This document shows, piece by piece, positions 14,105-30,537 of a stretch of DNA of 30,670 nt. The stretch is from an uncultured Candidatus Saccharibacteria bacterium (GTDB lineage: Bacteria > Patescibacteriota > WWE3 > UBA101185 > UBA10185): the NCBI GenBank assembly GCA_964464645.1, contig CAYXGU010000001.1, forward strand, positions 1,716 through 32,385, given 5' to 3'. Positions within the stretch are counted from its first letter, which is position 1. Each line of letters begins with the position of its first letter. The notes under the pieces are model-generated. The model searched no databases and was not told where the DNA came from. It saw only the letters and a list, made by a program, of their open reading frames with translations. Both the position numbers and the translations under genes were made by a program.

Positions 14105-14160
14105 TTGGGGATTGGTGTGACGCAAGAGTACTTGCTATCACCATCGTTGGGGATTGGTGT
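14105..14160 (+). repeat. 14-bp direct repeat of the tRNA-Gln 5' end enclosing a hairpin
   Basis: TTGGGGATTGGTGT at 14105-14118 and 14147-14160; GCAAG-AGTA-CTTGC hairpin between them. Confidence 0.85.
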
Positions 14161-14221
14161 AATGGCAGCACGCTGCACTCTGGATGCAGAAATCGGGGTT
14201 CGAATCCCTGATCCCCAGCCA
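14148..14221 (+). tRNA. tRNA-Gln (anticodon CTG)
   Basis: TGGGGAT/ATCCCCA acceptor (U1-A72), CTGCA-CT-CTG-GA-TGCAG anticodon arm, GGTTCGAATCC T-arm, encoded CCA. Confidence 0.97.
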
Positions 14222-14671
14222 TATAGCCTGGAGAAACCTTGTATGATATGGGTGATATACTTGTATAATGCTTATTAAAATTACACCAGAAATAATAAAT
14301 GCAGTTAAAACTATAGAGGGAATTTTAATTTCTAAGAATTATAAGAATCTTTCCTCCGAAAAAAGGACTAATAGATTAAGTAACGATGAGGTAGAAAAAG
14401 CGATTAAGAATTACGGAGGTTCTGTAACAGAAAGACCTGCACTCAGCTTATCTGATTTACAAGTTATTAAAATCGAAGGAAGTGATTTTGATACATATCA
14501 TGTAGACTACGATTTATATATTGACGGTAAACAAAGTGATCTCACATTATCGCTAATAGTTACCAACATTGACGGTAACTACGTAGCTTCAATAGAAGAT
14601 TTACACGTTTTATAAATCCTAGAGAATTAATTGGTTCCTGACCGACATGCTCAGCCATATAGCCTGGAGAA
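14216..14671 (+). repeat. 20-bp exact direct repeat spanning the tRNA CCA end, flanking one gene
   Basis: CAGCCATATAGCCTGGAGAA at 14216-14235 and 14652-14671. Confidence 0.95.
14268..14615 (+). CDS. Hypothetical protein (DUF7668-like), cassette 1 cargo
   Basis: 115 aa, AT-rich, SDLTLSL...IEDLHVL C-terminus. Own TGA-TATACT 6 nt before ATG. Confidence 0.7.
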   Translation: MLIKITPEIINAVKTIEGILISKNYKNLSSEKRTNRLSNDEVEKAIKNYGGSVTERPALSLSDLQVIKIEGSDFDTYHVDYDLYIDGKQSDLTLSLIVTNIDGNYVASIEDLHVL

Positions 14672-14740
14672 GACGCATACAGGACAGTTAGCAATAAAAA
14701 AATAATTGAAAATGTACTTTAGAAGTAATATTTTATATCA

Positions 14741-15382
14741 ATGACTATCCCATTCTCAAAAGAAGATTTTTTTGAAATATTCGCAAGCTATAACAATGCG
14801 ATATTTCCTATGCAATTTTTTCTAATTGCCATAGCATTGGTATCGGTTTTTATTGTACTTAAAGGAAATATCAAGTATAAATTTGTTGTTCCAGCAACCC
14901 TAGCTTTTTTGTGGGCATGGATGGGAATTGCCTATCATATAATGTTTTTTTCACAGATAAACCCCGTTGCAAAATTATTTGGATTTGTATTTGTCATTCA
15001 ATCTGTGATTTTCATCTTTGTAGGATTAGTGAGGAAAGATCTTAACTTTGTTAAGCCAAAAGGGTTCAGCTTATATTTATCAATCACTCTACTTATATAT
15101 GCGTTTCTTATCTACCCATTAATAACGATAAGAACCGGACACACGTATCCAAGCATGCCAACTTTTGGTCTTCCTTGTCCGACAACGATTTATACTTTTG
15201 GAATTCTCTTACTTACAGATTTGAAAAAACTACCCAAATACGTAATCGTTATTCCGGCATCTTGGGCTATTATAGGATCAACTGCAGCGTTTAAACTTGG
15301 GATAGTTGCGGATACAATGTTATTTATCAGTTTATTTGGGTTTCTTGGAACAATTTACATCAAGAAAAAAACAACTCTATAG
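14741..15382 (+). CDS. DUF6064-like multi-pass membrane protein, cassette 2 cargo
   Basis: PFSKEDFFEIFASYN..IFPMQ, W.WMGIAYH, PTFGLPCPTTIYT; about 7 TM segments. Confidence 0.8.
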   Translation: MTIPFSKEDFFEIFASYNNAIFPMQFFLIAIALVSVFIVLKGNIKYKFVVPATLAFLWAWMGIAYHIMFFSQINPVAKLFGFVFVIQSVIFIFVGLVRKDLNFVKPKGFSLYLSITLLIYAFLIYPLITIRTGHTYPSMPTFGLPCPTTIYTFGILLLTDLKKLPKYVIVIPASWAIIGSTAAFKLGIVADTMLFISLFGFLGTIYIKKKTTL

Positions 15383-15578
15383 AGTAATTTGGTTTCCGAC
15401 TGACCTGCTCAGCCAGTAAGAGTAAGATCGCTAAAGACAGGATTCTAGTTCAATTAAGTCGAGTAAAACACAAAAAGTAAGTAATTGACAACACTGACGC
15501 GTTCATTTTTCAGGCCGAAGCTTTGCAAGAACAACAAAGCCACAAACATCACCCACAATGGCTTGATATAATGCATAA

Positions 15579-28839: not shown

Positions 28840-29295
28840 ATGCTACTGGCGAAAAACAAAAAAGCAACTCACAACTACGAGATTGTGAAAAAATTTGTAG
28901 CCGGGATAAAGCTAAGGGGATACGAAGTAAAGTCGGTTCGTAATGGCAATGTAAACTTTGAAGGCGCATATGTTACTGTTGAGGACTCGGTTCCCAAACT
29001 GCTAAATTTGCACATCGGCAGATACGCGAAACAAAGCCAAAGTACAGAGCTTGCAAACCCCAAACGCCCGCGCGACCTGCTACTTAACAAACCTGAAATA
29101 GCAAAAATTGCCTCGGAACTTAGTCAAAAAGGCCATACGGCAGTCCCCCTGGCTTTAGTTTTAACCAATAACATGGTAAAATTGGAACTCGCAATAGTAA
29201 AAGGCACCAAAAAATACGAGAAAAAAGCAAAAGAAAAGGAAAAACAACAGCAACGGGACCTTGAAAAAGAACTTAAAACCCATTTTCGGGGATGA
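28840..29295 (+). CDS. smpB: SsrA-binding protein
   Basis: NKKATHNYEI...AGIKLRGYEVKSVR, LHIGRY, R.RDLLLNK.EI; abuts tmRNA. Confidence 0.96.
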   Translation: MLLAKNKKATHNYEIVKKFVAGIKLRGYEVKSVRNGNVNFEGAYVTVEDSVPKLLNLHIGRYAKQSQSTELANPKRPRDLLLNKPEIAKIASELSQKGHTAVPLALVLTNNMVKLELAIVKGTKKYEKKAKEKEKQQQRDLEKELKTHFRG

Positions 29296-29673
29296 TCGGA
29301 TTTGACTGGATTTACCCAACACACGAAAACAAGTCAGATTGCTAAACTCTGTAACAATTAGCAAAATATAAGTGCAGCTAATAAAAATGCACGCGTTCCC
29401 GCCTACGCGGGTGCGCTAGTCTAACCCCTAAAAAGCAGCGACTGGTTGATTGGTTTTCTACCTCGAAGAACACCAATTGGCCTAATACAATTCGGGGTGA
29501 AATGTGCAGTGCCCGGCTAAAACCTGCACGTTAACAACAACTAATTTAGCCATGAACCGGCTTTTCGGGTGCGCCTATGCCCTACCGGTTTTTAACAAAG
29601 TTGGGCTAAGCTTGTAAGTTTTTTTGTGTCTTGGCTTTTCAGCACGCGGGTTCGATTCCCGCCATCTCCACCA
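29288..29673 (+). ncRNA. ssrA: tmRNA (tag ORF 29374-29424, AANKNARVPAYAGALV)
   Basis: GGGGATG...GGATTTGAC 5' end; GCGGGTTCGATTCCCGC-CATCTCC-ACCA 3' end with G3.U70; ATAAGT-GCA resume context. Confidence 0.95.
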
Positions 29674-29676
29674 GTG

Positions 29677-29715
29677 GAAAAGCCGGAAGTGTCTTTAGAT
29701 ACTTTCGGCTTTTTC
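29677..29715. terminator. Strong intrinsic terminator after ssrA
   Basis: GAAAAGCCGGAAGTGTCT/AGATACTTTCGGCTTTTT, about 18 bp stem including G.U pairs. Confidence 0.8.
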
Positions 29716-29726
29716 AGTTATGAGCA

Positions 29727-29827
29727 CACGCGGGGAATCGAATGGCGCAGGCACGACGGTGCCGAGCCGGGGTCGACTGGCTCGCCAGCAGGCGAGAACA
29801 GGTGACCGATTCCCGCCATCTCCACCA
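29727..29827 (+). repeat. Duplicated tmRNA 3' end with a 72-nt GC-rich structured insert at the T-loop
   Basis: CACGCGGG (29727-34 = 29643-50) and CGATTCCCGCCATCTCCACCA (29807-27 = 29653-73) flank the insert. Confidence 0.9.
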
Positions 29828-29856
29828 ATAACGCTTTTTTACCGTATAATTGGTTG

Positions 29857-30537
29857 ATGTTGAAATCTGAGCAACAAGATGTTTGGCAACTTCAGCCAGA
29901 AGAATTTATTACCGCTAATTCTGAGTTACTAAGCGAAGGTATAAGAACAAACTTTTCTAAATCCTATTTTGATGAAGACGACATTCAAGAAAGCCTCAAC
30001 AGAGAACTTAAATTCATGGGTGTTATATTAGCTAGCTATGAGCTGTGGGCACAAGAGCCAAACAATGTTGTGTTGTGGGATGTTGACGACACGATGGGCA
30101 AGGCCAAATTTTTAAATGAAACATCAACACCCGAATGGTTTTTTCGCCCCTCCATGCAATTGTTGATTCCTTATATTTCTAAACGATACCCAACCATTAA
30201 AAATGGCATAATCTCCAATCGGCGAGTAGACGAGGCTCGTTATGGCTTTGATAAATACTCCGAGCTCTTTGATGAGTACCCATTCTTTGATCCAAACTAC
30301 ATTTTTAGTTGTAGAGATGAGCCCACAGACAAAGCAGCGGCAAAAGCCATATCCCAAGAGCTATTTGCACTTTATCCGGGCCGCACATCAAGAGACGCAG
30401 AAAAAAAATTGTTGATTCTTAGACAACTTGCAGCAACACGCCACGACATTAAGTGGCGCGTCATAGACGACATGGTAGAAGCTAGCGCTATGGGAGAAAG
30501 TGGTGCGGATGTTTATTACCTAATGCCATTATTTTAG
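29857..30537 (+). CDS. HAD-superfamily-like protein
   Basis: VLWDVDDTM (motif I), GIISNR (II), VIDD (IV). TATAAT 6 nt before ATG 29857. Confidence 0.7.
   Translation: MLKSEQQDVWQLQPEEFITANSELLSEGIRTNFSKSYFDEDDIQESLNRELKFMGVILASYELWAQEPNNVVLWDVDDTMGKAKFLNETSTPEWFFRPSMQLLIPYISKRYPTIKNGIISNRRVDEARYGFDKYSELFDEYPFFDPNYIFSCRDEPTDKAAAKAISQELFALYPGRTSRDAEKKLLILRQLAATRHDIKWRVIDDMVEASAMGESGADVYYLMPLF

Follow-up and report, generated by a model that had tools for sequence, protein, structure and literature searches.

A folded, gene-less unit behind a Saccharibacteria tmRNA gene, apparently one of a large family at tRNA 3' ends and a candidate miniature insertion element

The tmRNA locus and its duplicated tail

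In the genome of an uncultured Candidatus Saccharibacteria bacterium, the 3' end of the transfer-messenger RNA (tmRNA) gene is present twice, and a compact folded unit that encodes no protein separates the two copies. The locus lies near the end of the analyzed stretch of 30,670 nucleotides (nt), denoted here the window (contig CAYXGU010000001.1, positions 1,716 to 32,385), which comes from a genome of 0.77 Mb designated G000; other G numbers stand for relatives or sampled genomes, and L numbers for individual loci. The features of the locus, all on the plus strand, are listed below, with the helices of the folded module labeled P1 to P3; R1 is a covariance model of the family described in the next section, built from an alignment (A2) of 24 copies.

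29288..29673, plus strand: intact one-piece tmRNA gene with the tag AANKNARVPAYAGALV-stop, the host or target gene (ARAGORN; Rfam RF00023, 127.8 bits, full length)
29653..29673, plus strand: proximal 21-nt tail copy, from T-loop C56 to CCA, within the functional tmRNA (repeat search)
29675..29716, plus strand: spacer hairpin with an A-tract, a 12-19 base pair (bp) stem, a TTTA loop and T5, resembling an intrinsic terminator for the tmRNA (inverted-repeat search; RNAfold, -27.3 kcal/mol)
29717..29729, plus strand: linker that holds TTATGA; TATGA- or TATAG-like words occur in many family copies
29730..29742, plus strand: left arm GCGGG-G-AATCG plus AA, reverse complement of the tmRNA T-loop and T-stem 3' strand, forming the 5' strand of the closing helix P1 (inverted repeat GGGAATCGAA/TTCGATTCCC; covariation with tRNA positions 56-63 in 53 copies)
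29744..29768, plus strand: arm P2/P2a, GGC..GGCAC-GACG-GTGCC..GCC (folds; A2 pairs 13-15/36-38 and 19-23/29-33 covary)
29772..29806, plus strand: arm P3, GTC..CTG.CTCGCC-AGCA-GGCGAG..CAG..GAC, with a conserved GGTGAC at its end (folds; 11 of 12 pairs changed on both sides)
29807..29827, plus strand: distal 21-nt tail copy, of which the first 8-10 nt form the 3' strand of P1 and the acceptor 3' strand and CCA are unpaired (repeat search)
29732..29827 (= G000:C1:31447-31542), plus strand: full match to R1 (111.6 bits, E ~1e-26)

A repeat search of the window places CGATTCCCGCCATCTCCACCA, the end of the tmRNA gene (29653-29673), a second time at 29807-29827 with 21 of 21 positions identical; the direct repeat is exactly 21 nt long and extends 0 nt past the CCA. 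The 133 nt between the tail copies contain no open reading frame (ORF) and consist, in order, of the terminator-like hairpin with its T5, the 13-nt linker and an insert of 72 nt (29735-29806) that has 49 G+C. Immediately before the insert, CACGCGGG at 29727-29734 is the same as tmRNA positions 29643-29650, and GGGAATCGAA (29733-29742) is a perfect inverted repeat of TTCGATTCCC in the tmRNA (29651-29660). The RNA fold of 29727-29827 comprises the closing helix and two arms (minimum free energy, MFE, -49.4 kcal/mol; z = -3.49; 0 of 200 shuffled sequences as good). An earlier description of this locus from the letters alone, referred to below as the sequence-only reading, had given the duplicated 3' end, the 72-nt insert with its 49 G+C and the 133-nt distance exactly, and both stems that it named, GGCAC-GACG-GTGCC and the CTCGCC-AGCA-GGCGAG arm, are present in the MFE fold. 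Its description of a tmRNA 3' end with the TT of the T-loop replaced is too simple: the left arm is antisense to the T-loop.

Logan contigs from four independent public DNA runs cover 29576-29726 and 29720-29870 with zero differences and thus match the junctions, which rules out an assembly artefact. Promoter scoring of 29200-29950, the linker included, gave no sigma-70-like site. A group I intron in the tmRNA T-loop was rejected, given the uninterrupted tmRNA, the insert of 72 nt and the lack of an Intron_gpI match, and so was a permuted two-piece tmRNA, for which RF04321 reaches 26.3 bits against a cut-off of 47 bits, the score coming from the T-arm and CCA, in the presence of a full one-piece tmRNA. 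Directly downstream of the unit, a gene at 29854-30537 encodes a 227-amino acid (aa) protein with a DVDDT motif that by eye resembles haloacid dehalogenase (HAD) hydrolases; its promoter-like TATAAT (29845-29850) begins 18 nt past the distal CCA.

A family of modules behind tRNA and tmRNA genes

A BLAST search of the stretch against its own genome detects a second copy, 87-91% identical, on contig 59. It follows tRNA-Pro(GGG) at a distance of 50 nt, and its final sequence, CGAGTCCTGCTACCCCGACCA, is the tail of tRNA-Pro and not that of the tmRNA. The two modules differ at six positions, which amount to three compensatory pair swaps. In G000, R1 identifies exactly these two copies; among 61 relatives, it finds copies in 23 genomes, with 1-15 per genome, and in an even phylum-wide sample of 151 genomes, in 7, including members of three other families. 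Altogether, a module of 60-70 nt with covarying helices is present in more than 100 places. The occupied genes are those for Pro, Ser, Leu, Ile, Met, Lys, Ala, Glu, Phe, Arg, Gln, Gly and Tyr tRNAs, representing at least 20 anticodon species, and for tmRNA. Copy numbers vary widely, with 15 in G053, 7 in G037 and 2 in G000; G000, G004, G010, G011, G013, G014 and G037 have 2-13 each. Copies therefore sit beside other tRNA 3' ends with covarying stems, the check that the sequence-only reading had proposed, and the insert is neither unique nor devoid of covariation.

Searches with Rfam 15 of window positions 29600-29900 and of six other loci, at gathering and at permissive thresholds, returned tmRNA and tRNA plus chance matches but no family corresponding to the element, and nothing relevant to it was found in the literature searched. 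A 15-mer pattern scan of viral and genome collections gave only chance matches in high-GC genomes, without the module, and a specific 29-mer had zero matches in viral contigs. The element is apparently a member of a large, undescribed family of folded, gene-less units of ~100 bases located behind tRNA and tmRNA genes of the Candidate Phyla Radiation (CPR).

The breadth of the family bears directly on one rival explanation of the locus. A displaced fragment from T-loop to CCA is the classic right-end scar (attR) of islands integrated in tRNA genes, and the tmRNA-linked unit could be a decayed attR of a larger, deleted island, with neither activity nor function; the fragment itself and the lack of a protein in the 133 nt fit this explanation. 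The presence of the same covarying module in more than 100 places and at 20 or more tRNAs, the spacers as short as 14-20 nt, and the islands examined below, which lack a module at their ends, do not fit, and a dead scar, largely refuted by the family data, appears very improbable.

Constant layout and the target-matched closing helix

The order of parts is constant across the family: a tRNA gene, a spacer of 14-60 nt that usually contains a terminator (a hairpin equivalent to 29675-29716 is seen in most members), a complement of the T-loop of 7-8 nt, a conserved three-way junction, and finally C56-A76 of the tRNA. About 40 of 54 copies have a tRNA or tmRNA gene on the same strand 14-60 nt upstream (14-20 nt in the shortest cases) and end with the last 21 nt of that gene. 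The direct repeat is exactly 21 nt long in 33 of 37 scorable copies and extends 0-2 nt beyond the CCA in 31 of the 37. It always starts at C56, which is preceded by GTT in the tRNA and by GAC in the element, yielding the junctions GTT/CGA and GAC/CGA.

The left arm follows the sequence of the gene that the copy accompanies. When P1 pairing is scored by tRNA position in 53 copies, nearly all of them (52-53) pair at 56, 59, 60 and 61; the fraction declines to 87% at position 62 and 64% at position 63 and is at the chance level from position 64 on; positions 57-58 either form Watson-Crick pairs (arm ...TCGAA) or are opposite GA (arm ...GAGAA), which would be a tandem G·A. The arm tracks rare T-loops, with A facing U56 in L059 and U facing A57 in L006, L027 and L029. 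In L028, U64 is faced by A in the arm but by G50 in the tRNA itself, so the left arm is a complement of the T-loop and T-stem and not a copy of the 5' T-stem strand. P1 is maintained in cis in L047. In the main family, positions 64-76 (acceptor strand and CCA) are unpaired yet copied exactly, and the tail is retained at 21 of 21 positions in about 85% of the copies. In 7 of ~41 copies, the distal tail differs from the tRNA, mostly by one change in the acceptor part, of a kind incompatible with a functional tRNA, and in L025 it is closer to the tRNA-Gln tail of another genus than to that of the present local tRNA. Judging from their sequences, such decayed tails, that of L025 for example, look like fossils of the tail as it was at the time of insertion.

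Several related arrangements depart from the main family. In the metagenomic tmRNA-linked loci L318, L334 and L339/L340, there is an extra upstream arm, GGTGGAGATG, which is the exact complement of CATCTCCACC, together with a 9-bp hairpin. In the L318, L334 and L339 variants, the whole tail is double-stranded in a cloverleaf-like fold and the internal modules are unlike those of the main family; the region has a weak permuted-tmRNA score in Rfam (32-33 bits, below the cut-off). At L037:1084-1226, in a tRNA cluster on contig 17 of G137, tRNA-Lys(CTT) is followed by a different, G-rich unit of ~125 nt whose last 17 nt repeat the tail of tRNA-Lys, TCCCAGGCGACTCACCA; the layout is thus common to at least one more type of module. 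The genome G111 contains two 107-nt repeats (L040:1485-1591 and L046), 87% identical, with the module-like hairpins CGCGACGGCG and AAATTTCC-AGCA-GGAAATT; their closing stems are unrelated to any tRNA tail and there is no tRNA nearby, and these repeats may be tRNA-independent relatives of the module. Finally, just past the tRNA-Pro mini-element on contig 59 of G000 (L002:1589-1650), there is a perfect hairpin, GTGATTGGC-TTG-CCAATCAC, followed by GCAGG, ~34 nt and a third copy of the last 10 nt only of tRNA-Pro (ACCCCGACCA). With this different, shorter-tailed unit following the mini-element, the locus is a small array.

Covariation and the choice between RNA and DNA

The helices of the module are supported by extensive covariation. 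In A2, 91.2% of the cells are paired compared to 28-40% when the partners are slid, 20 of the 28 pairs show changes on both sides, and 0 of 500 shuffles reach the observed values. The spectrum of mismatches carries information on the molecule that is folded: selection on an RNA helix permits G·U but removes A·C. Among 43 distinct main-family copies, the internal helices of the module comprise 788 Watson-Crick pairs along with 10 G·U, 9 A·C and 34 other combinations; for comparison, 89 distinct tRNAs of these loci have, in their acceptor and T stems, 997 Watson-Crick pairs together with 68 G·U, 1 A·C and 2 others. Since the module shows G·U and A·C at equally low frequency, its pairing looks strand-symmetric, which favors DNA over RNA, and this parity speaks against long-term selection on a plus-strand RNA in place. 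Under selection at the DNA level, the complementary strand would have to pair too, or G·T would be a mismatch like any other. Individual G·U pairs might be taken to indicate a plus-strand RNA, which the full count (10 G·U vs 9 A·C) does not support. Under DNA parameters, both strands fold into the same junction (z = -5.2 and -3.4).

The same body of evidence can be read in terms of a family of functional small RNAs of ~96 nt, in which the junction binds a cellular factor and the 3' part mimics the T-stem, acceptor strand and CCA of one tRNA or tmRNA; such RNAs could be, for example, decoys or competitors for a factor that recognizes tRNA 3' ends, or antisense to recombinase mRNAs that overlap tRNA genes. 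Strong covariation combined with invariant unpaired bases is compatible with this possibility, as are the two G000 copies that differ by compensatory swaps only, the persistence of P1 in cis in L047 and of the exact 21-nt tail in about 85% of copies despite the unpaired state of positions 64-76, and the better folding of the plus strand under RNA parameters (z = -3.49 vs -1.40). Copies located in tRNA operons (L037) are certainly transcribed, and serine recombinase genes end antisense inside tRNA 3' ends. The 10:9 ratio of G·U to A·C, compared to 68:1 in tRNA stems of the same DNA, is difficult to reconcile with a selected RNA; furthermore, a terminator usually stands between the tRNA and the module, no promoter was scored in the window region, the distribution is patchy (23 of 61 relatives) with variable copy number and tandem arrays, and 3' exonucleases would be expected to degrade an 11-nt 3' tail that is unpaired. 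A functional small RNA is accordingly regarded as an unlikely explanation, and the suggestion of the sequence-only reading that the insert is a structured non-coding RNA or a CCA-ended tRNA mimic is weakened by the equal rarity of G·U and A·C, the strong preceding terminator and the lack of a promoter-like site.

Possible signs of movement

Comparison of copies across genomes suggests that modules may change places. Near-identical modules, including a distinctive AAUUCUC/GAGAAUU helix, are found at different tRNAs and across genera, namely at tRNA-Arg and tRNA-Phe of G004 and at tRNA-Ser of G011; the syntenic tRNA-Arg copy of G011 has a module quite different from that at tRNA-Arg of G004. The mean identity of module cores is 0.62 for copies at different tRNAs of the same genome, 0.56 for copies at the same tRNA in different genomes and 0.55 for the background, with values of up to 0.91 in G000 and in G016. 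Four genera have the tRNA-Arg(TCG) site filled, and in G023 it is empty; most of 33 metagenomic tmRNA loci that have the same 32-nt end are also empty, the organisms being distant. Tandem units with unrelated spacers occur at a single tRNA in L030, L011 and L005/L063, and one copy (L037) lies inside a tRNA operon. With respect to the tmRNA locus itself, an SmpB-based locus search for empty alleles gave no relatives and exact-protein look-ups gave no matches.

Serine-recombinase islands at the same tRNA tails

Copies without an adjacent tRNA mark the far ends of islands that start at the cognate tRNA, with spans of 2.7 kb at tRNA-Leu (L063), 9 kb at tRNA-Glu (L064, G016:C1:408150-428149) and 4.2 kb at tRNA-Pro (L066, G014:C6:5200-25199). 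The islands of L064 and L066 each encode a large serine recombinase with Resolvase, Recombinase and zinc-ribbon domains, the gene for which ends antisense inside the tRNA 3' end. The cargo of L064 includes Eco57I-like and N6/N4 methylases of the restriction-modification type, a DUF2779 protein and a helix-turn-helix (HTH) protein, and that of L066 a gene for a CYTH-domain protein, whereas L063 contains a radical SAM gene and no recombinase. The statement of the sequence-only reading that there is no integrase holds locally; in relatives, however, islands with large serine recombinases share these tRNA tails, their repeats being of another length.

These islands raise the possibility that the unit is a gene-less cassette or attachment site of a serine-recombinase system, with module and tail forming the recombination site and the enzyme supplied in trans. 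The presence of islands of 2.7-9 kb between a tRNA and a module-plus-tail unit, two of the three with a large serine recombinase (L064 and L066), is in line with this view, and so are the reversed order in L071, where the serine recombinase gene adjoins the tail of a mini-element, the single large serine recombinase encoded in G000 (on contig C43), and the tail-like sites at the ends of cassettes behind tRNA-Gln in the window. However, the islands' own repeats are only 8-10 nt long (GGGGTCACCA, CCCGACCA and GCCCACCA), compared to exactly 21 nt for the mini-elements; the island always separates the tRNA from a full mini-element, made up of hairpin, linker, module and 21-nt tail, which follows the island repeat, and the island ends themselves lack a module. 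The different repeat lengths and the complete mini-element beyond each island indicate separate insertions that share one target. In addition, G026 has three good copies of the module and a large serine recombinase was not found in that genome; across genomes, the association is weak, the enzyme being encoded in 19 of the 23 genomes with modules and in 25 of the 38 without. Serine recombinases are not, to our knowledge, dependent on folded sites. Taken together, the cassette interpretation seems rather doubtful.

The units behind tRNA-Gln in the window (14148-15415) are two single-gene units, both starting with TATAGCCTGGAGAA, that end in the tail-like sites ...GACCGACATGCTCAGCCA and ...GACTGACCTGCTCAGCCA, which resemble the tRNA tail but are not exact 21-nt copies. 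Spacer starts were compared by eye with the left ends of islands, and the similarity is too weak to claim.

A candidate miniature insertion element

A constant layout, multiple copies, an exact 21-nt repeat, covariation, strand-symmetric mismatches and the absence of an element-encoded protein characterize this family. Weighing these features, we consider it an even call that the tmRNA-linked unit is a copy of a gene-less, miniature non-autonomous insertion element that targets T-loops and lodges at the 3' ends of tRNA-like genes. This is the best-supported of the readings, on the strength of the family and its covariation, and it coincides with one proposed from the sequence alone.

Such an element would consist of an optional terminator hairpin, an arm against T-loop and T-stem positions 56-62/63, the three-way-junction module with its GGTGAC end, and the tRNA's own C56-A76. 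The folded module, together with the closing helix matched to the T-loop, would be the structure for recognition and attachment, and the active form of the module is most likely folded single-stranded DNA and not a stable RNA. Insertion would join the element to the T-loop between positions 55 and 56 and leave bases 56-76 duplicated, so that the tRNA or tmRNA stays intact. Both the movement and its catalysis by a host-encoded enzyme are parts of this proposed scheme. The duplication probably arises at insertion, as a target duplication, and is not carried in by the element. The arm specifies positions 56-63 only, which are nearly uniform across tRNAs except for 57, 59, 60 and 62-63, so a few arm variants would suffice for all targets; consequently, the tRNA-specific acceptor part would be best explained by target duplication and not by bespoke tails. 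The alternative is a crossover between positions 55 and 56 with a proximal tail borne by the element. A more specific version, in which the T-loop-complementary arm is a nucleic-acid guide that picks any tRNA-like gene, tmRNA included, and insertion by host enzymes alone duplicates the segment from position 56 to the mature 3' end, is speculative and on the whole improbable; it would imply that the tRNA fold, or a mature tRNA base-paired with its gene, is what the mechanism recognizes, and not a DNA motif, and it would amount to a new kind of guided insertion that depends on structure.

A number of observations weigh against an insertion element. No excised form, empty allele of this tmRNA locus or polymorphism was seen, the DNA contigs, at low depth, presenting the filled form only, so the case for mobility rests on the comparison between genera. 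Copies in tRNA operons (L037) must be transcribed. The G000 copies that differ only by compensatory swaps point to strong purifying selection, which would also fit a functional RNA, and the parity of G·U and A·C would also be expected if the copies were young and their mismatches unselected and decaying neutrally. We know of no precedent for a 21-bp target duplication that ends exactly at a mature 3' end. Moreover, none of the enzyme families tested tracks the module. The reverse transcriptase PF00078 was not found in G000, G037 and G053, which have 2, 7 and 15 copies, nor the Y1 transposase PF01797 in G000, G004, G010, G011, G013, G014 and G037; the IS110 DEDD transposase PF01548 is present in one of the 61 relatives, and that genome is module-free. 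Two Xer-like tyrosine recombinases are encoded in most of the tested genomes, with or without modules (Phage_integrase matches number three in G000 and four in G014), and the large serine recombinases are, as shown above, only weakly associated with the presence of modules.

An all-against-all comparison of ORFs within 1.5 kb of 50 copies also revealed no recurrent neighbor gene, the clusters being frames through the module itself. A reverse transcriptase gene (G137:C17:4834-5448, in a 367-aa frame) is located ~3.5 kb from two mini-elements; its size may suggest a diversity-generating retroelement.

If mobile, these elements would be among the smallest site-specific insertion elements known, gene-less and homing to the T-arm, which has been called the most conserved hairpin in biology, while leaving an essential gene intact; they would provide a natural model for how a folded nucleic acid alone specifies a safe integration site, and a candidate tool. 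If instead they encode RNA, they would represent a new class of tRNA-specific regulators in organisms with minimal genomes. For annotation, they are relevant because CPR genomes account for a large part of bacterial diversity and the elements give rise in them to spurious 'tRNA fragments' and 'att sites'; they also flag the tRNA loci where islands pile up.

Comparison with known systems

In position, the element parallels the islands of tyrosine integrases. Williams is said to have described, in 2002, islands and prophages integrated at the T-loop sublocation of tRNA and tmRNA genes by such enzymes. The junction in the T-loop, the rebuilt gene, the direct repeat from T-loop to CCA and the use of both tmRNA and tRNAs are all shared. 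Unlike these islands, the element is ~100-150 nt long, encodes nothing, and has a folded module and a T-loop-complementary arm; a single module family occupies at least 20 tRNAs, and no dedicated integrase was found.

Among non-coding repeats, RtT RNA (Rfam RF00391) and the 178-bp tyrT repeats of E. coli are units behind a tRNA that each end in a copy of ~19 nt of the tRNA 3' end. The element is similarly non-coding, located downstream of a tRNA gene and terminated by a copy of that gene's 3' end, but the tyrT repeats are confined to one enterobacterial locus, whereas the present family is dispersed over many tRNAs and has a helix matched to the T-loop. RtT RNA was rejected as an identification: even at E up to 10, its model matched nothing in 29600-29900, nor did it match any of six other loci.

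Miniature inverted-repeat transposable elements (MITEs) and repetitive extragenic palindrome doublets that form hairpins (REPINs) are likewise small, gene-less, multi-copy, hairpin-forming and patchily distributed among relatives. The differences are that the inverted arms of the element are derived from the target, that its flanking repeat is 21 nt long and tRNA-specific, and that no partner transposase was found for it (Y1 and IS110 tested). More specific affiliations with mobile elements were also rejected: a derivative of IS200/IS605, such as a palindrome-associated transposable element (PATE) or a TnpB omega-RNA, as the Y1 transposase was not found in copy-rich genomes; an IS110 bridge-RNA element, as PF01548 occurs in only one, module-free genome of 61; and a tRNA-primed retroelement similar to short interspersed elements (SINEs), as reverse transcriptase was not found in G000, G037 and G053.

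In architecture, the element can be compared with integron attC sites and with elements that exploit Xer recombinases, such as the CTX phage, which recombine as folded single-stranded DNA. The junction of the element is GAC/CGA and not the GTTRRRY/RYYYAAC core of attC, no additional IntI-like integrase was found, the target is the T-loop of a tRNA, the repeat is 21 nt long, and, unlike in attC, the sequence of the module is conserved, its unpaired bases included. The likenesses concern the principle of organization: in all these systems, inverted arms pair to recreate the target site in duplex form about a variable branched structure, the pairing is conserved, and arrays grow beside one fixed site. 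As with the Xer-exploiting elements, no recombinase of its own would be needed, and the covariation of the element, together with its parity of G·U and A·C, would fit an imperfect palindrome conserved for pairing and acting as folded single-stranded DNA, as in attC, although the module is conserved in sequence as well.

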